DNA from: an uncultured Anaerolineae bacterium
GTDB lineage: Bacteria; Chloroflexota; Anaerolineae; VGOG01
Direction of reading: 5' to 3'
Assembly (NCBI GenBank): GCA_964510205.1
Contig: CAZEBW010000003.1
Location: forward strand, 13,274-77,273
Length of the DNA stretch: 64,000 nucleotides
Shown: positions 17,666 to 43,200 of the stretch, in pieces
How the letters are laid out: each line of letters begins with the position of its first letter
Position numbering within the stretch: position 1 is the first letter of the stretch
Notes under the pieces: generated by a model
Databases searched by the model: none
Told to the model about the DNA's origin: nothing
Seen by the model: only the letters and a program-made list of their open reading frames with translations
Position numbers and translations under genes: made by a program

Positions 17666-18784
17666 TCAGTCTAGCTCGCCCTCCATCAGCCCCAGCGGCA
17701 GGGGGGCGGGCCTTTGGCAACGGCTGGCAATCTCGATGTGCCGGCCGCTCTCCGACGATTCCTCTAGGGCGCGCATGACGTCGAGCACGTGATAGGCCAG
17801 TTCGCCGCTGGCGCGGTGGGGGCGGCCAGAGGCGATGGCGTAGGCCATGTCCGCTACGCCGATTCCGCGGCCCACCTCGGTGCTGTGGGTGAGCGGCATC
17901 TCGCTCCATTCGTCGGCCCCGGCCCGGCGGATCCAGACGGATCCGCCAAAAAGGCTGGGGTCGGTGGCGCTGAGGGTGCCTTCTGAGCCGTAGATCTCGA
18001 GGTGTGGCAGCTTGGCGGCCCACATGTCGAAGCTGAGGATGGTCGTGGCCACCGGCCCGCTGACGAAGTCGAGCGCTCCGCTGACGTGGGTGGGGACTTC
18101 GACCGCTATCCTGCGCCCGCGATGCAGCTCACTGGTGGCGATGCGTTCGGGGAAAGAGATTCGAGCCAAACTGGTGACCCGCTTCACGGGTCCCAACAGG
18201 TTGACCAGCGCGGTCAGGTAATACGGCGCCATGTCAAATATAGGCCCTGCCCCTACCTGGTAGAAAAAGTCCGGGTTTGGATGCCAGGACTCGGGGCCGT
18301 GGCCGTGACCGGGCAAAAACGCCGCCGCCGCCACCGGCTCGCCAATCCAGCCGTCGTCAATCAGCTTGCGGCACGTCTGCTGGTGGCCGCCCAAGAAGAT
18401 GTCCGGCGCGCAGCCGACCCGCACGCCCTTCTCCTGGGCCGCAGCGAGCACCTTTTGCCCGTCTCGGCGGGTCACGGCCAGAGGCTTCTCAGAATAGACG
18501 TGCTTCCCGGCGTTGATGGCCGCCAGACTGACCTCGGCGTGGGCCGTGGGCACGGTGAGGTTGACCACGATTTGGATCTCTGGATCCGTCAACACCTCCT
18601 CGACCGAGCAAACGCGGCAGACCTCGAACTCCTCGCCCTTTTCCTCCGCTTTGAGAGCGTCAATATCCGCACAGGCCGCGATGTCGAGGATCTCGAAGAT
18701 GCGGCATCCCCTGATGTAGGCTCCGAAAATACTCCCCGTGCCTATAATACCGATTTTAACTGGTGACTGCTCCGCCCGTGTCAT
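17666..18784 (-). CDS. Gfo/Idh/MocA family NAD(P)-dependent oxidoreductase
   Basis: N-terminal Rossmann VKIGIIGTGSIFG and an EKP motif. The start is placed at MTRAEQ (18784); that ATG is contributed by the terminal repeat of a palindromic element. Confidence 0.7.
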   Translation of the reverse strand: MTRAEQSPVKIGIIGTGSIFGAYIRGCRIFEILDIAACADIDALKAEEKGEEFEVCRVCSVEEVLTDPEIQIVVNLTVPTAHAEVSLAAINAGKHVYSEKPLAVTRRDGQKVLAAAQEKGVRVGCAPDIFLGGHQQTCRKLIDDGWIGEPVAAAAFLPGHGHGPESWHPNPDFFYQVGAGPIFDMAPYYLTALVNLLGPVKRVTSLARISFPERIATSELHRGRRIAVEVPTHVSGALDFVSGPVATTILSFDMWAAKLPHLEIYGSEGTLSATDPSLFGGSVWIRRAGADEWSEMPLTHSTEVGRGIGVADMAYAIASGRPHRASGELAYHVLDVMRALEESSESGRHIEIASRCQRPAPLPLGLMEGELD

Positions 18785-18896
18785 TGCGAGGAGCGTTCCT
18801 TCGGCTTCGCTCAGGACAAGTTTTTGCGACGAAGCAATCTCCTCCTTGCGGCTTGGGGATTGCTTCGCTTCGCTCGCAATGACAGCCTGCGTAGTC
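18769..18896. repeat. MITE-like palindromic element, family A (TIRs GTCATTGCGAG...CTCGCAATGAC with internal inverted repeats GAAGCAATC/GATTGCTTC); copy 1
   Basis: Lies between the isomerase stop (18900) and the oxidoreductase start. A related copy sits inside the GT39 ORF at 37487-37654. Confidence 0.65.
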
Positions 18897-18899
18897 ACT

Positions 18900-19667
18900 T
18901 TAACTTTTGTTTCCACGGGCGAAACCTCCTTCGACGAGGTATTGATAGCTTCTCTCCACCGCTTCCAGCATGTCGGCGGCGCAGTGGTCCAACTCGACGA
19001 TCAGCCATGCCGCTGCCCCCTCGGCGGCCTGGAAGATGGCGGGGAAATCCAGCACGCCATCGCCGACGGCGACGTGCGGCTCACCCTGGATGGCTGGGCC
19101 ATCTTTGAGGTGCAGCAGTGGGGCGCGCGGGCCGAGTTGGCTCGCCACTTTGGCCGGGTCCACGCCCGCCGTCTCGATCCAGTACGTGTCCAGCTCGAAG
19201 AACACGCCTGGGTCGAGGCGCTCCAGCATCACCTGGTAGACGTAGCGGCCTTCGACCTGGAGAAACTCCCACCAGTGGTTGTGAATCCCAAACGCCAGGC
19301 CGTTTTCGGCCGCCACGGCATGGGCTTCGTTGAACAGGTCACACGTCTGCTGGATGAGGTCCATCGTCTCGAAGCTCTCTGGCCCTTTCCCGGACACAAT
19401 GCGCTGGCAGCCCATGGCGGCCATGAAGTCCAGCACCCTGGTTTCGTCTTTGCCGACTGGCAGGGGCGTGTGCGCGGAGGGCGCCTCAAGCCCCAGCTCT
19501 TTGAAGAGCCTGGCAGCCTCGGCGGTTGTCGTGCCGGGAAGATGGAAGATGGGTTCTACGCCGACGTAGCCGATATCGGCGACTTTTTTCATCACCCCAA
19601 CAAAATCCTGGGCCAGGGCTTCGCGCAAGGTGTACAGTTGTAGGGCAATGGGAATGGTCATGAACAT
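18900..19667 (-). CDS. Sugar phosphate isomerase/epimerase (xylose-isomerase-like TIM barrel)
   Basis: MTIPIALQLYTLREAL..., typical of this family. The start is at 19667 or 19661, with a GAGGAGG SD. Confidence 0.7.
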   Translation of the reverse strand: MFMTIPIALQLYTLREALAQDFVGVMKKVADIGYVGVEPIFHLPGTTTAEAARLFKELGLEAPSAHTPLPVGKDETRVLDFMAAMGCQRIVSGKGPESFETMDLIQQTCDLFNEAHAVAAENGLAFGIHNHWWEFLQVEGRYVYQVMLERLDPGVFFELDTYWIETAGVDPAKVASQLGPRAPLLHLKDGPAIQGEPHVAVGDGVLDFPAIFQAAEGAAAWLIVELDHCAADMLEAVERSYQYLVEGGFARGNKS

Positions 19668-19690: not shown

Positions 19691-19765
19691 TGGCCAAAAT
19701 CTGTTGTAGTAGCGACTTCAGTCGCTTGGAACGACTAAAGTCGTCACTACCACAGGTTTTAGCCA
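19691..19765. repeat. Palindromic element, family B (GTAGTAGCGACTTCAGTCGCTTG...GACGACTAAAGTCGTCACTAC, flanked by CCAAAATCTG/CAGGTTTTAG); copy 1
   Basis: Two internal hairpins. The reverse-complement copy is at 31990..32092. Confidence 0.65.
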
Positions 19766-31989: not shown

Positions 31990-32092
31990 GATGGAAATTT
32001 GGGTTCGTAGTGACGACTTTAGTCGTCTGGTTCGGGGGACAAGCGACTGAAGTCGCTACTACGAATCCCTATAGTGGTCAGATTTTCCATCT
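31990..32092. repeat. Family B palindromic element, copy 2 (reverse orientation; TIRs AGATGGAAATTTGG / CAGATTTTCCATCT)
   Basis: Contains GTAGTGACGACTTTAGTCGTC and CAAGCGACTGAAGTCGCTACTAC, the reverse complement of copy 1. ATTGAGTCT is repeated at both flanks. Confidence 0.65.
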
Positions 32093-35076: not shown

Positions 35077-36249
35077 TCATCGGGGGCAAGTCGCCATGAG
35101 CTCCCGGTATACGTGATACGTCTTCGCCGCCACCTGGGCCTGGGTGTAGTGGGCCAGCACCCGCTCTCGGCCTCTTCGAGCCAGTTCCTCCCGCAAAGCC
35201 GAATCGGTCATCAGTTGGGCCAGTTTGCCCTGCAAAGCCTGGGCATCCCCCTCGGCGAAAACCAGGCCCGCATCACCGATGACGTTGGGGATTTCCCCCG
35301 AGTCCGATCCCACCACCGGCACCCCGCAGGCCATGGCCTCGATCAACACCCGCCCGAACTGCTCTTTCCAGTTGGGTCGGGTCAGGGAGGGCAGGACCAA
35401 GGCGTCCAATTGACTGTAATAGTCAGGCATCTGAGTGGAAGGAATGGGCTCCTCAAACCTCACCCGCTCGGCGATGCCCAGCTCCGTGGCCAGCTTTTCC
35501 AGTGGAGCCTTCTGCGGCCCACTCCCCAGGATGCGCAACCGCCAATCGCCTGCCAGACCGGCCACCGCCCGCAGCAAGATGTGCACTCCCTTCTCTTCGA
35601 CCAGCCTGCCTACGTAGCCAATGACGAAAGGTTGTGAAACGTGAGGCGTGAAACGTGAAACGTGAGGCGTGAAACGTGAAACGTGATAGATCTCAGGATC
35701 CACCCCAAACTGCGGAATCGCCTTGACAGGTCCTCGATACCCTTTCGCCCTCAGCACCCCCACCGCTTCGGCGTTGCCGGCGATGGCGTAATCGGCCTTG
35801 CGCAAATTGTAGCTTTCGATGAGGCTGAAGGGGGGCGGATAGCGGCGATGGAGGTTTTGCCAGGTGAAGAAGATGGCCTTGGCTCCGCGCTTCTTGGCCA
35901 GGCGCATAGCTTGCCAAGTAGCCGCGTTGTAGGGCTCCTCGTCAATGTGGACGATGTGGGGCTTGATGCTCCTGAAATGCTTGCCCAAGCCCGGATAGAA
36001 GTGCAGGTGGAAGTGGCCGTTGAGGGCCATCCTCTCCACCACCAGCTCATATCCCTGCGTATGCGCTCGCTCCAGCCGCATCACCCCTCGTTCGTCGCGC
36101 CAGCAGGGCGGCACCACCACGGTGAGCTCCACGTTGGGCAACTTGGCCAGTTCCTCCAGTTTTTTCTGATAGGCGCCCACGATGCAGGCCTTGGAGATCA
36201 TCAGCACGCGCAAATGGCTGCTCCTTTCGGTCTCTGCTATGTGACCCAC
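35077..36249 (-). CDS. Glycosyltransferase family 4
   Basis: EQFGRVLIEAMACGVPVVGSDSGE. The start is uncertain: it could be the downstream MISKACIV. Confidence 0.75.
   Translation of the reverse strand: MGHIAETERSSHLRVLMISKACIVGAYQKKLEELAKLPNVELTVVVPPCWRDERGVMRLERAHTQGYELVVERMALNGHFHLHFYPGLGKHFRSIKPHIVHIDEEPYNAATWQAMRLAKKRGAKAIFFTWQNLHRRYPPPFSLIESYNLRKADYAIAGNAEAVGVLRAKGYRGPVKAIPQFGVDPEIYHVSRFTPHVSRFTPHVSQPFVIGYVGRLVEEKGVHILLRAVAGLAGDWRLRILGSGPQKAPLEKLATELGIAERVRFEEPIPSTQMPDYYSQLDALVLPSLTRPNWKEQFGRVLIEAMACGVPVVGSDSGEIPNVIGDAGLVFAEGDAQALQGKLAQLMTDSALREELARRGRERVLAHYTQAQVAAKTYHVYRELMATCPR
35634..35689. repeat. In-frame tandem repeat (21-nt unit GTGAGGCGTGAAACGTGAAAC x2.5, built from a GTGAAAC/GTGAGGC heptamer) inside the GT4 gene
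   Basis: Encodes HVSRFTP x2.5. Confidence 0.7.
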
Positions 36250-36323: not shown

Positions 36324-38615
36324 TTGTGCTATAATCTACGCCTGTGGAGGAATGGGGGGAAGGGTTGGCAGAGCTTGGAGAGACCAGGGCGTTCGTTTTG
36401 GACTGAATGGGGGTCTTTGCTAGCGGTGATGGCCCTAGCAGCGGCCCTGCGCTTCTGGGCTCTGGGTAGCATACCGCCCGGCCTCTATCACGACGAAGCT
36501 TTCAACGGCCTGGATGCCCTGGGGGTTCTAAAAGGCGAAAGGCCGATTTTCTTTGAGGCCAACAACGGCCGCGAACCGCTGTTTATTTACCTGGTCGCCC
36601 TATCCGTGGCCTTTCTGGGCCGCAGTCCAGGGGCCATACGCATCGTGGCTGCTGTGCTGGGCACTTTGACAATTCCCGCCACCTATCTCATGGCCAAGGC
36701 CCTATTCAACCGACGCATCGGGCTGCTGTCCGCCGCCATCGCGGGCCTGACCCTGTGGCACGTCAATCTGAGCCGCATCGGCTTCCGCGCCGTGGCCATG
36801 CCGCTGTTGGTGGCCCTGGCCCTCTGGCAACTGTGGCTCGGCTTCAAGCGTGGCCACCGAGGCCATTTTCTGGCGGGGGGGATGCTCTATGGGCTAACCC
36901 TCTATACCTACCTCGCGGCGCGATTCACCATCGTGGCCCTGGCCGCCTTCGGCCTGTATCTCTTTGGAGGTTGGAGGTTAGAGGTTAGAGGTTGGAGCTT
37001 GGGGATTGGAAGTTGGAGGCGTGGCGCCTTAGTCTTTGCATTGACCGCGTTGGTGGTTTCGGCCCCGCTGATGGTGTACGTGGTCACGCACACGGATGCC
37101 TTTCTGGGCCGCGTGGGGCAGGTGTCCATATTTAATCCCACCATCAACGAGGGCGATTTCTGGGGGACGCTGCTGCGGCACGTGGGCAGGACGCTGCTGA
37201 TGTTCACCCACCGGGGCGATTTCATCCCCCGCCACAACGTGCCCTTGCGCCCTGTCTTCGATCCGGTTCTGGGTGCGTTTTTCCTGCTGGGGTTGATTCT
37301 TTGCTTGGGCCGATTTCGCCGGCGACCCAACCACGCTTTGGTCGTTATCTGGCTGGCGGTCATGCTCCTGCCCACTATCCTGGCCGAGGACGCGCCGCAT
37401 TTTCTGCGCAGCGTGGGCGTTCTGCCCGTGGCCTTTGTCGTGCCGGCCATAGGGCTGGATTTCTCGTGGCGTTTTGTAACTACTCAGGCTGTCATTGCGA
37501 GCGGAAGGGCAACCGCAGGTTGCACGCAATCTCCACCCCGCAATTGGAGATTGCTTCGGGCGCAAACCCCGCGCCCTCGCAATGACAGCATGAACGGTAG
37601 TTTCTGCCCTTTAGAATGGCGGGCCCGCCATGGGCGACTCGCAATGACACGGGCTGAGCAGTTACGGCGTTTTTTAGAAAACAAGGGCCCTGCTGCGGTC
37701 GCTGTTGGCGTGGTGGCGCTGGTTCTGATGTTTAGCCTTGGCGACACGACTGTTGACTACTTTGGCGATCACGCTGCCAGCCAGTACTTGCGATACAATT
37801 TTGAAACGGCGGCGGTGGAGCTGGCCACTCAGGCCAATCGCTTCCTGGGCGCCGGATGGGATGGCGCGGGACTTGGGACCAGAGAGCACCCCCTGTCGCC
37901 TGGGCGCCACCTCTACATCGTTGACCGCCTCTGGCGGGATTGGCCCTCGGTGCGCTTTCTGGTGCCGCCCTCGCCAAACTTGACTATCTTGACAGAAAGT
38001 GCTACACTTTCTCGGGCTTCCTCGGAGCTCGGGTTGAGTGGCCGAAGGCGTACCGAAACCGAGGTCATGCTCGTTCTCTGGCCCTACGAGGACTACAGCC
38101 AGTACCTGACGCTTTTGCCCGTAGGCTCTATCATCGCTGTCCAGGAGGGAGCCCTGGAGCGAGGGGACCTCGAAAAAGAGGCCCGGTTACTGTACATCGC
38201 CTACACGACCGCTCCCGCGACCACCCCGGCTGGACAGCCGGTGGCTCGCTTCGAAAAAGACATGACCTTGATTGATCATCGCCTGGTTGCTGTTTCGCCG
38301 CAGGAACTGCGCTTGAGCCTGCTCTGGCGAGCCGAGGCGGAGGTCGAGGCAGATTACGCCGTGTTCGTCCACCTGACGCGGGGCGGCGCGATCTTGACTC
38401 AGGATGATTCGCCTCCCGCTGGAGGCTATTATCCCACCAGCTTGTGGCGCGCGGGAGACATCATCAGCGACGAGCATACCCTGGTCTTGCCCGAACCGTA
38501 TGATGCGGCCAGGCATAAGTTAATAGTTGGCTTCTATCAATTGCAGACTTTGGACCGATTACAAGTCCTTGATGAATTGGGCAAACCCATAAATGACCAC
38601 GTGATCATTGAATGA
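36324..38615 (+). CDS. GT39/GT83-like GT-C glycosyltransferase (ArnT/PMT family) with a C-terminal extracytoplasmic domain. The ORF carries two in-frame repeat elements and may in fact be two genes.
   Basis: The N-terminal TM region with YHDEAFNG...REPLFIY typical of ArnT/PMT. The C-terminal domain is related to the repeats of the 40241 protein. The true start is uncertain. Confidence 0.65.
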   Translation: MCYNLRLWRNGGKGWQSLERPGRSFWTEWGSLLAVMALAAALRFWALGSIPPGLYHDEAFNGLDALGVLKGERPIFFEANNGREPLFIYLVALSVAFLGRSPGAIRIVAAVLGTLTIPATYLMAKALFNRRIGLLSAAIAGLTLWHVNLSRIGFRAVAMPLLVALALWQLWLGFKRGHRGHFLAGGMLYGLTLYTYLAARFTIVALAAFGLYLFGGWRLEVRGWSLGIGSWRRGALVFALTALVVSAPLMVYVVTHTDAFLGRVGQVSIFNPTINEGDFWGTLLRHVGRTLLMFTHRGDFIPRHNVPLRPVFDPVLGAFFLLGLILCLGRFRRRPNHALVVIWLAVMLLPTILAEDAPHFLRSVGVLPVAFVVPAIGLDFSWRFVTTQAVIASGRATAGCTQSPPRNWRLLRAQTPRPRNDSMNGSFCPLEWRARHGRLAMTRAEQLRRFLENKGPAAVAVGVVALVLMFSLGDTTVDYFGDHAASQYLRYNFETAAVELATQANRFLGAGWDGAGLGTREHPLSPGRHLYIVDRLWRDWPSVRFLVPPSPNLTILTESATLSRASSELGLSGRRRTETEVMLVLWPYEDYSQYLTLLPVGSIIAVQEGALERGDLEKEARLLYIAYTTAPATTPAGQPVARFEKDMTLIDHRLVAVSPQELRLSLLWRAEAEVEADYAVFVHLTRGGAILTQDDSPPAGGYYPTSLWRAGDIISDEHTLVLPEPYDAARHKLIVGFYQLQTLDRLQVLDELGKPINDHVIIE
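36966..37018. repeat. Heptanucleotide tandem repeat AGGTTRG x4, with a GGATTGGAAGTTGGAGG tail (family E, copy 1), in-frame inside the GT39 gene
   Basis: GGAGGTTGGAGGTTAGAGGTTAGAGGTTGGAG. A reverse-complement copy is at 40912-40942 in the next large gene. Confidence 0.6.
37487..37654. repeat. Family A palindromic element, copy 2 (GCTGTCATTGCGAG...CTCGCAATGACAGC), plus a solo terminal repeat CTCGCAATGACACGGGCTGAGCA at 37632-37654; in-frame within the GT39 ORF
   Basis: Same TIRs as 18769-18896. The solo end supplies an in-frame ATG (LAMTRAEQ), as in the oxidoreductase gene. Confidence 0.65.
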
Positions 38616-40240: not shown

Positions 40241-43200
40241 TTGTTAGGCATGTTTTCAAACATCGCGGAGAGGAAGAAACGAGCCGCAGGATTGCTCCTG
40301 GCCTTGTCCCTGAGCCTCATGGCCTGCCTGCCCCTGTTGGTAGGCGATGCGGGTCTCATCAACACGCGCGGGGGAGGGGATAGCCCCTTCCTACTGGTCC
40401 GTGTGCATCAATTGGTTGCCAACTTGGAGGCCGGCATCTTCCCCGCCCGCTGGATGCCCGACGCTGCCTATGGATTGGGCTACCCCTTTTTCAATTTCTA
40501 CGCTTCTCTGCCGTATTACATCGCGGCTCTGTTCAAACTCTGTGGCTTTGGCTTCATCTGGGCCATCAAGCTGACTCAGCTCCTGGGTTTCCTCGCTGCG
40601 GCAGCTTCGATGTATCTGTTGGCCAAGCGCTTGTTCAATCGAGAGGCCGGCGCTATCCTGGCCGCCCTGGCTTATACCTACGCTCCCTATCACCTGGTCA
40701 ACGTCTACGTGCGGGGCGATGCCCTATCGGAGTTCTACGCCTTCGTTTTCTACCCCCTCATCTTTTGGGCGCTGCTGCGGCTGCGAGACTCGCTTTCGGC
40801 TGCCAACGTCGCTTGGGTCGCCCTTGCCTACAGCGGACTGATCTTGACCCACAATGTCTCGGCCCTCATCTTCAGCCTCTTTGTGATTCTCTATCTTCTT
40901 CTCATATCTAAGGTCCAACCTCTAACCTCTGACCTCCAACCCTTCGGCAGGGCTCAGGGCAGGCCTCCAACCTTCAAATGGCTTGCCAGCAGCGTTTTCG
41001 GCCTGGGCCTGGGCCTAGCCATCAGCGCCTGGTTCTGGCTGCCGGCCCTGCTGGAGGGGAAGTACGTGCAATTGGAGCACCAGACCACCGGCTACTTGAA
41101 CTACAGCAATCACTTCCGCGGCCTGAATCTGGTGCAGCCTTCGCTTCTGTTTGACTATGCCATCGGAGCGGGCCAGACTCCCTTTGTGATGGGACTGGCC
41201 CAGGCCGTGCTAGTGCTACTGGGCTTGGCCGCCATCGTTGCCTGGTGGATCAGGCGCCGCCGCCCCGAGGCCCACAGTGCGTTCTTCATCGCTGGTCTGG
41301 CCCTGGCTACTTTCCTCATCACCCCGCTCTCGCGCCCCCTGTGGGACAACGTGCCGCTGCTGCCCTTCGTCCAGTTTCCCTGGCGATTTCTGTCGGTGCA
41401 GGCCTTCTTTGCCAGCCTGGTCATCGGCTACTTGGGAGTCCCCAACTTGTTGGGGGCGCGGCGCAACGAGCCCGAACAAGACTTCGGCGAGCTCAGTCGA
41501 GCCGTTCGGGACTCCGCTTTGGGTTTCAGCAGACCGCGTTTGCTGGCCGGCGTCTTGGGAGCCGCGCTGCTGGTGACGTCCATGCTGAGCCTGAGGCCTG
41601 AGTACCTGCCCATCGGCGAAGCGGACGTCACCGTGGAGCGACTGATGCTCTACGAGTACTTCACCGCCAACGTCGGCACCACCATCCGCCACGAGTATCT
41701 GCCCCGCTGGGCGGCGCCTCGCCCTTACACCTCCGAGGCGCTGCTGCGCCGTGGGGAGAAACCGCCGCCGCTGGTGATGGGCGGAGAGGTCAAAGCGGTT
41801 GGGCTGGTTTGGCGCGGGCCAGCAGCCGAAGGGTGGGTCCTCGATGTGGGCTCTCCCCAGGCGTCTTTGGCCTTTCACACCTACTACTTTCCCGGCTGGC
41901 GAGCCTACGTGGACGGCCAGCCCACGGATCTGCAGCCCGTCGAAAACCTGGGCTACATCGGTCTCGATCTCGACCGTGGAGAACACGAGGTAATCTTGCG
42001 CCTGGAGCGCACGCCGCTGCGGGCTTGGGCTGAGGGGGTATCGCTGGTTGCGGCACTGGTCGTCGTTGGACTCCTAATCGCTGGGAAGCTGACGAGGCGA
42101 CGAGGCAATGAGGCGACAAGGCAACGAGGCAATGAGGCGATGAGGCAACGAGGTTCTTTCCTCATTCCCTCGTCGCTGATTAACTCATTACCTTTGGCCA
42201 TGATGGTGGCAGTCTTGTTGCTAGGCGCTGTCGGATTCCGGGTTTCGGGCCGACACTCCGCCGACCACCCGACCATCCGACCATCCGACCAAGGACCATC
42301 CGACCTGACTATGGACTTCGACCGCCTGCCTTACCTGCATCACAATCCTCAGGGAGTCAACTTTGGCGGGATGGCGCGGCTGAAAAGCTACCAGCTTTCG
42401 GCGGACGGCTTAGCTTCGCACGCTATTGTGCAAGCTGGCGGAACTGTCGAGGTGGTTCTCCACTGGGATGAGGTCAAGGGCGAGGGGCTGGAAGCTAACG
42501 TGCGCCTGACCTCGCCCGCCGAGTACCTCTTCCACGCCAGCGCTGGCCTGGCTGAGGATCGCGTCGCCATCTCCTCCCCACGGGGGGCGACGCGCCATCT
42601 TCTGGAAGTGCCCGAGGAAGCCGTTCGCGGTCTCTACCTGATCAGCGTAAGGGTGTGGGACGAGGAGGGCGAGATAAGGCCCGTCACCGAGAGGGGCGAG
42701 ACCCTGGGCGCGACCTATCTGCGTCCTCTGGGGGTTAGCAGCCAGCGATGGGCTGCGGGCGATGAGCCGACCCTGGCAAACTTCGGGCCGGGCATCGTCT
42801 TGAGCGAAGTAGCCACCGAACAGACCACGTCCGAATCATTGCAGGCCAGGCTGACCTGGCGAGTCGTTGAACCGGTGGCCGCCAACTACGGCCTGGCCCT
42901 GCGCCTGCGGGATGCAAGCGGCCAAGAGCTTGCCTCCCTGGACACCCAACCTCACTACGGGCTGTATCCCACCAGCATGTGGCGGCGGGGAGAGCTGATC
43001 AGCGACGGCTACGTCTTGCCCCTGCCTGAGGGCACCCCGCCCGGCGACGACTATGCGCTGGAAGTGATCCTCTACGAAGTGGCCTCACTAGCCCCCATCG
43101 GCACGGCCCAGATACCCGTGGCCCTCACCAAGCCCACCATCAAGGCCACCTATCCCGTGCTGCAGGAGTTCGATCCGTTGGCCCTGGTCGCATTGAGTCC

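Follow-up and report, generated by a model that had tools for sequence, protein, structure and literature searches.

The window, by which we mean the whole 64,000-nt stretch of DNA analyzed, contains two genes whose reading frames run through copies of one short repeat: a glycosyltransferase gene (GT39 hereafter) and a Gfo/Idh/MocA oxidoreductase gene. The repeat, family A, is a MITE with terminal inverted repeats (TIRs) of 26–28 nt (GTAACTNCTCAG..GTCATTGCGAG) and an 8-bp target-site duplication (TSD). The features of the two sites are:

36324–38615, plus strand: 763-aa ORF of a predicted GT-C fold glycosyltransferase (Pfam PMT_2; 100% identical to protein P0001).
37468–37475, plus strand: left TSD copy, GGCGTTTT, identical to 37666–37673.
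37476–37665, plus strand: MITE, remodelled 190-nt copy, with only frame +0 free of stops (from TIRs, TSD and orthologue alignment).
37476–37501, plus strand: left TIR, GTAACTACTCAGGCTGTCATTGCGAG, which fits the consensus of 44 canonical copies and recurs at 18873–18898 on the other strand.
37502–37586, plus strand: inner palindromic unit, ends CTCGCAATGAC, putative mini-element cargo, which aligns with composite copies L066, L069 and L028.
37600–37637, minus strand: IS110-family mini-element left end, TCGCCCATGGCGGGCCCGCCATTCTAAAGGGCAGAAAC, with a palindrome at 37616–37631 and the right end lost.
37638–37665, plus strand: right TIR, CTCGCAATGACACGGGCTGAGCAGTTAC, identical in L001, with an in-frame ATG at 37644–37646 (Met441).
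37666–37673, plus strand: right TSD copy, GGCGTTTT, identical to the left copy.
17666–18916, minus strand: 416-aa Gfo/Idh/MocA oxidoreductase ORF, insert included (100% identical to P0121, annotated at 416 aa).
18755–18762, minus strand: gene-proximal TSD copy, CAGTTAAA on the minus strand, with one mismatch to the upstream copy.
18763–18898, minus strand: MITE, a variant of 136 nt that follows codon 6 of the oxidoreductase gene in frame; with its TSD it adds 48 codons.
18899–18906, minus strand: upstream TSD copy, AAGTTAAA on the minus strand, which overlaps the isomerase stop codon (18900–18902).
18914–18929, minus strand: ancestral oxidoreductase start (GGAGG at 18929–18925, 8-nt spacer, GTG at 18916–18914).

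On domain and structural-model matches, the host glycosyltransferase is a predicted GT-C fold enzyme, CAZy GT39/GT83-like. Its PF13231 match scored 36.1 bits against a cut-off of 26.1 bits, YHDEA (the DE motif of the first outer loop) was invariant in the orthologue alignment, and Foldseek matched the protein to AglB, ArnT, STT3 and PglB (E 1e-8 to 1e-4). The database-annotated form begins at 36429 (728 aa). The GT39 copy and its TSD add 66 codons (residues 385–450) in the loop that leads into the last transmembrane helix, between two predicted helices; the AlphaFold pLDDT was <50 at residues 395–441, and the insert-bearing loop would probably be cytoplasmic.

The same GT39 site was empty in L002 (a single TGGCGGTTC joined to TTAGAAAAC) and likewise in L003, and it was filled, with the same TSD, in the window and in L001. 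A plain 112-nt copy occupied this site in one MAG. Among the aligned GT39 orthologue sequences, 20 of 22 ran ...LWRFLENR... without an insert, and the element peptide was present in only P0001, P0005 and P0121 among 240 retrieved homologues of both genes.

At the 18.8-kb site the 48 added residues precede the first Rossmann strand of the oxidoreductase, and the element ATG (18784–18782) is Met45. The ancestral GGAGG and GTG are intact, upstream of the MITE and in the same frame. The orthologues measure 366–372 aa vs. 416 aa here, and their N-termini, which read METKVKIGIIGTG (29 of the 38 printed begin (M/V)ExK/R-V-K/R-hGIIGTG), are the empty-site evidence for this insertion. The orthologous locus L043, with ATG in place of the window GTG and a TSD pair of AAGTTAAA vs. 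AAGTTAAG, carries a 112-nt copy that shares two diagnostic substitutions (ACG and GCGGAG) with the window copy vs. the consensus. The two copies therefore represent one insertion, by descent or allele transfer, and the shared derived substitutions rule out that each lineage acquired its copy here separately.

These data bear on a first-pass annotation of the window, made from its sequence, which had placed a ~115-nt repeat at 18769–18896 and 37487–37654. The repeat is real, with 60+ copies and TSDs, but its true extents are 136 nt (18763–18898) and 190 nt (37476–37665), and the GT39 insert is 66 aa rather than ~55 aa. The TIRs, TSDs and empty site bear out a mobile palindromic element inserted in frame in coding sequence; the 763-aa ORF is unbroken as claimed, the translated ORFs read ...LAMTRAEQ... 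at both sites, and the element does carry an in-frame ATG. The 18.8-kb copy had been called intergenic, but its position falls within ancestral Gfo/Idh/MocA coding sequence. The proposed comparison with orthologues found the GT39 orthologues to be without the segment, which leaves the claimed insertion standing, and the proposed copy count gave >60 complete copies among at least 80 loci in at least 5 Anaerolineae MAGs.

The TIRs begin GTAACT/GTGACT, are kept over 26–28 nt in the >60 MITE copies, and enclose a palindromic core (GTCATTGCGAG ... CTCGCAATGAC). Length was exactly 112 nt in 44–45 copies, whose mean identity to the consensus was 98.3%. The 8-bp TSD was perfect in 45 of 61 complete copies and had one mismatch in 12; its sequences were varied and AT-rich (42% GC vs. 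58% for the loci). Within the window, GTCATTGCGAG occurs exactly at 18780(+), 18873(-), 37491(+), 37576(-) and 37638(-), a count only weakly above chance for an 11-mer (5 vs. 1.5 expected, with 5 attained in 3 of 100 shuffles). The repeat is nevertheless real, because the ends common to both sites extend over 25–28 nt at 93–96% identity (18763–18790 with 37638–37665, and 18871–18898 with 37476–37503), 8-bp duplications flank them, and 60+ copies exist elsewhere. We consider it likely that both window elements are MITE copies inserted in frame in both genes.

The canonical MITE and its TSD together span 40 codons (120 nt). Of the six consensus frames, +0 alone is free of stops (VTTQAVIASEAKQSPSRKEEIASSQKTLLAMTRAEQL), and both window copies are read in it. 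One open frame in six is what chance predicts for a 112-nt element of 57% GC, and the single open frame is thus no sign of adaptation of the MITE to coding regions. The three small length variants (+15, +24 and +48 nt) all keep a multiple of three. Where reconstruction places the empty site within an ORF of ≥200 codons, 11 of 30 copies are in frame +0 vs. 5 expected. Substitutions by codon position in the 44 canonical copies numbered 29/18/38, inflated by one polymorphic third position, and clear coding constraint was not seen in these counts. The family may have been shaped by element-level selection for coding compatibility, as its 40 codons, single open frame and length variants would suggest.

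Of 53 copies surveyed, most have a short ORF or a gene end as their context, and a handful are intragenic. Further in-frame copies were found in a HAD hydrolase (L047), whose Pfam Hydrolase match extends across the insert, and in a second PMT_2 protein (P0258). An exhaustive search of representative proteins returned 24 with the element peptide, 23 of them short and one a real long protein (P0258), indicating that the family is lineage-restricted. A word-indexed protein search returned 17 carriers, all of 40–72 aa, but it missed known carriers and is therefore uninformative. A literature search for the motif gave unrelated primer sequences only, an Rfam search of both sites (E up to 1) gave no RNA family, and a promoter and terminator scan called none in or at the MITE copies. 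The hairpin of the GT39 copy was considered as a terminator on account of the T-run that follows it (GGCG TTTTTT) and was rejected, since the scan gave no terminator there and 4 nt separate the run from the stem. The sole match in a plasmid database was the core unit, 75% identical, in a Methylosinus (alphaproteobacterial) plasmid.

The MITE, which is small and multi-copy, has no transposase gene. It would be moved by a DDE-type transposase acting in trans, of which the TIR and TSD form is the signature. An insertion in the stop-free phase and in a tolerant part of a gene would add a peptide and leave the gene unbroken, and both window copies would be survivors of such insertions. Translation would then run from the ancestral starts straight through both copies, and on the sequence of the two loci each gene is probably read through in this way as a single polypeptide.

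The right TIR of every copy, however, carries an in-frame ATG that reads outward. If the ATG at 37644–37646 or 18784–18782 were a functional start, GT39 would be made as two polypeptides, an N-terminal GT-C membrane domain and a C-terminal domain with its own initiation, and the oxidoreductase would begin MTRAEQSPVKIG.... GT39 from Met441 would give a plausible single-pass anchored periplasmic domain, and the oxidoreductase from Met45 would have a near-native N-terminus, with 8 residues before VKIGIIGTG vs. 4 in the orthologues. ORFs with an initial MTRAEQ also lie beside other copies (L040, 4316–4735, and possibly the histidine kinase of L077). We nevertheless regard initiation within the element as unlikely. 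A GGAGG-like motif is absent 5–12 nt upstream of either ATG, the sole GGAGGAG of the MITE being ~33 nt upstream, and a promoter-like site was not found in or beside the MITE copies. The element ATG is base-paired within the stem that the TIRs form, in a hairpin of great stability (−90.2 kcal/mol, z = −5.9, for the GT39 copy; −57 kcal/mol, z = −3.8, for the oxidoreductase copy). The part upstream of it has no stop codon, so that ribosomes from the ancestral site must read through, and the ancestral Shine-Dalgarno sequence and start are conserved in both lineages. The frame has been kept despite a difference of 24 nt (oxidoreductase site) or 78 nt (GT39 site) from the canonical copy.

Both GT39 halves are under purifying selection. 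Between the two insert-bearing genes dN/dS was 0.23 in the N-terminal half and 0.28 in the C-terminal one (dS 0.42–0.62), and read-through as a single polypeptide is for this reason likelier than a split gene. The first-pass annotation had offered a split GT39 as one of its two readings; such a split is unlikely given that no stop ends the N-terminal part, that the element ATG lacks a Shine-Dalgarno sequence and sits in a hairpin stem, that the frame outlived a complex rearrangement, and that selection is seen in both halves. The terminal repeat had also been credited with the oxidoreductase start, which is not needed where GGAGG and the GTG at 18916 are retained upstream in frame.

A third reading, that the insertions inactivated both genes and that the open frames are chance survivals in young pseudogenes, is highly improbable. 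The window GT39 does sit on the longest branch of its clade, its dN/dS of 0.23–0.28 is slightly above the 0.17–0.22 obtained vs. the empty allele, and copies L020, L080 and L019 appear to interrupt long predicted ORFs in stop-containing frames. Those GT39 values are nonetheless well below 1 in both halves, over a dS of 0.4–0.6 since the insert-bearing lineages split; the 763-aa ORF, MITE included, and the 416-aa ORF have neither stops nor frameshifts; and a second, diverged genome keeps the same in-frame state at both loci.

The GT39 tree is star-like and does not clearly pair the window gene with the other insert-bearing gene as its sister: dS between the window and L001 was 0.42–0.62 vs. 0.37–0.49 for either against the empty L002. 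The MITE copies look much younger than the surrounding genes, a discrepancy that calls for gene conversion between copies, transfer of alleles, or precise excision on repeated occasions. A recombination tract around the GT39 insert was considered and rejected, since the local rise in identity was weak (0.95 over 81 nt) and mostly TIR and TSD.

The GT39 copy had been described as a full copy plus a solo terminal repeat. It is instead a single MITE, and what now fills its interior is the remnant of another kind of mobile element, an IS110-family mini-element. This IS110-type family inserts at the GTCATTGCG-AG core of the MITE: its left end occurred 24 times, 23 of them directly after GTCATTGCGAG, and AG came next in 16 of the 17 copies in which a right end was found; the remaining one, L046, is a doubtful match. 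Full copies of 1655 nt, with a left end of ~275 nt, encode a DEDD_Tnp_IS110 and Transposase_20 protein (451 aa in L040; PF01548, E = 1.9e-22; PF02371, E = 9.1e-12), and a similar ORF is present in L026. Most copies are derivatives of 125–166 nt in which unrelated cargo is bounded by just ~39 nt from the left end and 10 nt from the right, and mini-derivatives of this sort are undescribed in two IS110 papers (PMC11208160, PMC12288879). Having both ends of the 1655-nt element, they may be non-autonomous elements guided to the MITE core, presumably by bridge RNA.

In the GT39 copy the cargo unit (37502–37586) abuts the left TIR. We infer that an IS110-family mini-element would have inserted at the CT core beside the right TIR, and that a deletion between direct CTGTCATTGCGAG repeats would then have removed the MITE interior together with the mini-element right end. 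The outcome would be the present 190 nt, with its TSD a multiple of three and stop-free. A stop-free in-frame outcome of this rearrangement has a chance of ~0.08, and frame preservation at the GT39 copy is modest evidence. Three layers are thus nested (MITE, IS110-type mini-element and palindromic cargo), and the loop has grown from 40 to 66 extra residues. Taken jointly, a MITE selected for coding compatibility and 125–166-nt elements that are mini-IS110s mobilised in trans form a tentative and rather doubtful proposal.

Neither the ~600 kb of retrieved loci nor a scan of metagenomes yielded an autonomous element with the MITE ends. The sole long match of the outer-end scan of the loci, L040, was the MITE with a nested IS110, and a candidate long repeat, whose end was the query of the metagenome scan, proved to be another MITE family, ~153 nt long, that has the outer 14 nt in common with family A and likewise an 8-bp TSD. 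According to ISfinder and TnPedia descriptions, the ends of IS66-family elements begin 5'-GTAA and their insertion duplicates 8 bp. The family-A ends (GTAAC/GTGAC) and 8-bp TSD resemble these in two features, both generic, and neither an IS66-type transposase (TnpC) nor a long element with family-A ends was found in the scanned loci; we treat the IS66 family as a lead for the transposase of the MITE.

The repeat could instead be a palindrome of REP/REPIN or RPE type moved by a tyrosine (RAYT/IS200-like) transposase. Its core is an inverted pair of units that each start (T/C)GTC-AT..., recalling CGTC-tagged REPs including Rickettsia RPE-4 and RPE-6 (PMC3733652); the same core occurs in the alphaproteobacterial plasmid; and REPs are known IS110 targets (PMC11208160, PMC12288879). 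We find this origin quite improbable, since an 8-bp TSD of variable sequence flanks 57 of 61 copies, unlike single-strand Y1 transposition. The conserved ends reach 15 nt beyond the core, and the outer ends are common to other MITE families with unrelated interiors and 8-bp TSDs. The TGTC-AT tag is present, but the stem-loop form is not: as read from the sequence, the half-units do not fold as an 8–9-bp stem with a 4–5-nt loop.

Gene callers annotate both window proteins with element peptides inside (P0001, P0121 and P0005), and spurious short ORFs made of the element only are deposited as hypothetical proteins. Knowing the MITE avoids mistaking element segments for conserved domains or true start codons. 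The case shows that two diverged genomes can retain an insertion while the host gene stays under purifying selection, and if coding compatibility is selected, the MITE would be a recurrent source of new loops in Anaerolineae membrane glycosyltransferases and other proteins. If the mini-IS110 reading is true, these elements would be a natural case of bridge-recombinase cargo delivery into a dispersed repeat that reshapes coding sequence, as at 37502–37637, and their homing to the MITE core may interest those who work on bridge recombinases.

Repeat-homing elements are known in the IS110/IS1111 group: IS621 and ISPpu9/10 enter REPs, and IS4321/IS5075 enter the TIRs of Tn21. The IS110-type copies described here resemble IS621, which inserts at a CT core (PMC11208160), in their asymmetric ends, their one fixed target, the CT/AG dinucleotide on both sides and the repeated palindrome that they enter. 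They differ from IS621, ISPpu9/10 and IS4321/IS5075 in that they enter a MITE, at its TIR core (GTCATTGCG-AG).

In-frame insertion of small mobile elements is best known from Rickettsia and is here extended to free-living Chloroflexota. Rickettsia palindromic elements (RPEs), of ~100–150 bp, lie in frame in unrelated, apparently functional genes (Ogata et al. 2000, 2002; PMC10969869, PMC3733652). RPEs and the MITE both contribute a conserved peptide to loops or termini, and the (T/C)GTC-AT tag of the MITE core resembles CGTC-tagged repeats including RPE-4 and RPE-6. In-frame copies in intact conserved genes, as with RPEs, were found in GT39, the Gfo/Idh/MocA gene, the HAD hydrolase gene and the second PMT_2 gene. 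The intragenic share, by contrast, is small: nearly half of the copies of three RPE families lie in ORFs, whereas the MITE is mostly intergenic with a handful of intragenic copies (53 surveyed; 1 of 24 representatives long). By description the MITE is also set apart by its Chloroflexota/Anaerolineae hosts, its clear long TIRs and its 8-bp TSD.

Approximately 10% of prokaryotic MITEs are intragenic (PMC11602168), and intragenic, ORF-compatible copies are known for ERIC, Coxiella QMITE1, Anabaena MITEb/MITEe and Nezha (PMC10969869; PMC5896051). Family A shares with these a non-autonomous, multi-copy nature, TIRs, TSDs, hairpins and occasional in-frame ORF fusions. The MITE family is new, and its in-frame behaviour is like that of small elements already known inside genes. 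What distinguishes it from ERIC, QMITE1, MITEb/MITEe and Nezha is its sequence, the two in-frame insertions kept in two diverged genomes, and the one copy that was apparently rebuilt by a second mobile element with the frame kept.

In a search of the window, the 11-mer GTCATTGCGAG matches exactly at 18780(+), 18873(-), 37491(+), 37576(-) and 37638(-), a count that by itself is weakly above chance (5 matches vs 1.5 expected). The repeat that the first-pass annotation saw at both sites is real, but the likeness between the sites is much longer: 18763-18790 pairs with 37638-37665 and 18871-18898 with 37476-37503, each arm being 28 nt at 93%. This longer similarity and the flanking 8-bp direct repeats give the true extents of the two family-A elements.

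18755-18762 and 18899-18906: 8-bp direct repeats, target-site duplication (TSD) of site 1, TTTAACTG / TTTAACTT
18763-18898: family-A element of site 1, 136 nt, bounded by 8-bp direct repeats
37468-37475 and 37666-37673: 8-bp direct repeats, TSD of site 2, GGCGTTTT
37476-37665: family-A element of site 2, 190 nt, bounded by 8-bp direct repeats
Family-A outer end: GTRACTNCTCAGSC, in inverted orientation at both ends

A scan with the right end CGCAATGACACGGGCNGAGCAGTNAC, covering one genome per species, gave at least 80 loci; all right-end matches listed fall in five Anaerolineae MAGs. Exactly 112 nt were measured in 45 of 63 complete copies, and these have a mean identity to the consensus of 98.3%. 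The 8-bp TSD is AT-rich, varies in sequence between copies, and is perfect in 45 and has one mismatch in 12 of 61 copies. A transposase ORF is absent from family-A copies, and the orthologous GT39 site of another genome (locus L002) is empty (TGGCGGTTC/TTAGAAAAC). Jointly, the terminal inverted repeats, the fixed-length TSD, the many near-identical copies, the lack of a transposase ORF and the empty site identify family A as a MITE. At least three other small families (about 122, 145 and 153 nt) have both the 8-bp duplication and the outer 14 nt, GTAACTGCTCAGCC, in common with family A; copies of them lie in these fetched loci:

L011 4672-4793; L012 7582-7726; L036 6249-6370; L084 69-222; L088 946-1099

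These families have unrelated interiors. The shared ends and TSD suggest that one transposase probably serves several of them. Neither a family-A transposase nor an autonomous partner was found in ~600 kb of fetched loci and a metagenome scan. Ends starting with GTAA and an 8-bp TSD presumably fit IS66, which we take only as a lead to the family-A transposase.

The GT39 ORF encodes 763 aa with a PMT_2 domain (Pfam) and a GT-C fold (Foldseek matches to AglB, ArnT, STT3 and PglB). A conserved equivalent segment in orthologues had been named as evidence against an element-encoded insertion; 20 of 22 aligned orthologue sequences have no insert and read uninterrupted through ...PAIGLDxLWRFLENR..., whereas residues 385-450 of the window protein, 66 in all, are additional. 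The orthologue P0005, from MAG VGOG01, carries a plain 112-nt element at the identical nucleotide with an identical TSD. In the AlphaFold model, insert residues 395-441 have pLDDT below 50, and the insert lies between two predicted helices, just ahead of the last membrane helix and the beta-rich C-terminal domain; judged by the usual GT-C topology, this loop would be cytoplasmic. Comparison of the two GT39 genes that bear the insert gives a dN/dS of 0.23 for the N-terminal and 0.28 for the C-terminal part, with dS at 0.42-0.62, indicating that the host genes stayed functional.

A second in-frame repeat of the GT39 ORF (36964-37012, GGTTGGAGGTTAGAGG..., encoding WRLEVRGWSLGIGSW) has an inverted partner at 40898-40941, 3.9 kb downstream. 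The loop that bears it is hypervariable in orthologues and is expanded there by other repeat-encoded peptides; those of the orthologues are LSLAEGLEACPE..., TFKAQSSKFKAQ after LENR and GFDTPSATLRQAQDTAQPK in the C-terminal domain. Elsewhere in the window, the minus-strand gene of a GT4 glycosyltransferase (35077-36249) contains GTGAAACGTGAGGC units in tandem (35634-35693), which encode HVSRFTPHVSRFTPHVS. At 42091-42154 an 8-nt unit (GACGAGGC / AATGAGGC) is repeated about eight times in tandem.

The 18.8-kb copy had been read as intergenic. Orthologue N-termini place it instead within the ancestral Gfo/Idh/MocA coding sequence. Orthologues are 366-372 aa long, and 29 of the 38 N-termini printed start as (M/V)ExK/R-V-K/R-hGIIGTG, like METKVKIGIIGTG; the window ORF reads METKVK-(48 aa)-IGIIGTG, with VTTQ...AEQSPVK as the 48 added residues. 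The ancestral GGAGG, 8-nt spacer and GTG (18929-18914) are kept upstream of the element and in frame, in a start region that overlaps the isomerase gene's stop codon, so the element did not have to supply the oxidoreductase start, as had been thought. VGOG01 carries a 112-nt copy at the identical site; both copies have two substitutions relative to the consensus in common and so represent a single insertion, shared by descent or through allele transfer. The 23-nt sequence GTAGTAGCGACTTCAGTCGCTTG occurs as a perfect inverted pair 12 kb apart (19706-19728 and 32040-32062); one arm falls within the isomerase ORF's 5' extension (peptide ...SDDFSRSKRLKSLLQ...), and the pair probably belongs to another dispersed repeat family.

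The first-pass annotation also considered the element-borne ATG as a translation start, splitting GT39 or beginning the oxidoreductase. The ATG lacks a Shine-Dalgarno motif at suitable spacing and is sequestered in a hairpin (-90 or -57 kcal/mol); a promoter and terminator scan gave no such sites in or next to the elements, and no stop codon precedes the ATG. On these grounds the more likely course is translation that begins at the ancestral starts and runs through the elements. For the oxidoreductase, an additional start at Met45 may exist and would give a near-native protein. ORFs adjoining other copies, at L040 4316-4735 and L077 3496-4983, are readable from the element's MTRAEQ; the latter encodes a histidine kinase with no other Met upstream of MTRAEQ. 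There the element may supply, or only seem to supply, the start codon.

One of six frames of the consensus is stop-free (VTTQAVIASEAKQSPSRKEEIASSQKTLLAMTRAEQL), as expected by chance for such sequence, and the canonical element plus TSD adds 112 + 8 = 120 nt. The open frame is used by both window copies, both VGOG01 copies, a HAD hydrolase (L047) and a second PMT_2 protein (P0258). Of 30 copies with a reconstructed empty site inside an ORF of 200 codons or more, 11 use this frame vs 5 expected; most family-A copies are at gene ends or intergenic. In the simplest reading, insertion would be random as to frame and selection would purge disruptive copies.

Site 2 had been described as a second copy plus a solo repeat. 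The additional segment is not family A but the left end of an IS110-family element. The fetched DNA contains 24 occurrences of this end (TCxxCCATGGCG..CGCCAT..CAGAAAC), 23 of them immediately 3' of GTCATTGCGAG. With one mismatch allowed, the right end GTTTCTGAGT was found downstream in 17 of the 24, directly followed by AG (the CT core on the opposite strand) in 16 of 17; in the exception, L046, it is only 55 nt from the left end and is possibly a chance match. The fixed insertion place, GTCATTGCG-AG, is in the MITE core.

Window 37600-37637, reverse orientation: IS110-family left end, repeated in fetched DNA
L026 5073-6727 and L040 1576-4249: IS110-family copies or derivatives
L071, L014, L019, L028, L031, L039, L041, L044, L049, L066, L069, L070, L083: other loci with copies or derivatives
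Target stretch: CGCTTCG/AACGCTC-CT-CGCAATGAC

Full copies, among them those of L026 and L071, are 1655 nt long with a left end of ~275 nt, and encode a 451-aa DEDD_Tnp_IS110 + Transposase_20 protein. Most copies are 125-166-nt derivatives, with ~39 nt of left end, 10 nt of right end and unrelated cargo between, and are possibly trans-mobilised 'mini-IS110' elements; their homing to the MITE core is the most unusual by-product of the analysis. In L040, a 303-aa DDE_Tnp_1_3 transposase gene (1771-2682) lies within the left end of the IS110 copy, making three nesting levels: gene in IS110 copy in family-A MITE.

The right ~140 nt of the site-2 element align with the composites L066, L069 and L028; in comparison with them the element is missing the interior of the MITE and the right end of the mini-element. 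Both could have been lost through a deletion between direct CTGTCATTGCGAG repeats. The outcome, 190 + 8 = 198 nt, is in frame, with no other frame open; the chance of an in-frame, open outcome without selection is about 0.08.

Element copies are within 0-3% of the consensus, and flanking genes have dS 0.4-0.6; in the star-like GT39 tree the two genes with the insert sit on neighbouring branches that are not clearly sisters. The age mismatch could result from gene conversion among copies, from allele transfer, or from frequent precise excision, in which the hairpin would be bypassed by slippage from one 8-bp repeat to the other. Since site 1 has a 136-nt variant in the window vs the 112-nt form in VGOG01, and its 24-nt block recurs in the unrelated copies L012 and L053, this distribution points to conversion between copies.

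The inner palindromic core (GTCATTGCGAG..GAAGCAATCC-loop-GGATTGCTTCG..CTCGCAATGAC) is also present on Methylosinus trichosporium OB3b plasmid pOB3b1 (100184-100267; L090 157-227), between two convergent genes. By its occurrence in this alphaproteobacterium the core crosses phyla; the outer ends are specific to these Anaerolineae. The core's TGTC-AT tag resembles CGTC-tagged REPs, which include Rickettsia RPE-4 and RPE-6 (PMC3733652); the regular TSD of family A argues against a REP/RAYT mechanism. In-frame small palindromic mobile elements are established (RPEs, ERIC, QMITE1 and cyanobacterial MITEs; PMC10969869; PMC3733652), ~10% of prokaryotic MITEs are intragenic (PMC11602168), and homing to CT-core repeats is already known for IS110-family elements (PMC11208160; PMC12288879). 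Family A is not a new kind of element; it adds a new sequence family from a phylum that has been little studied, and its nested history is instructive.
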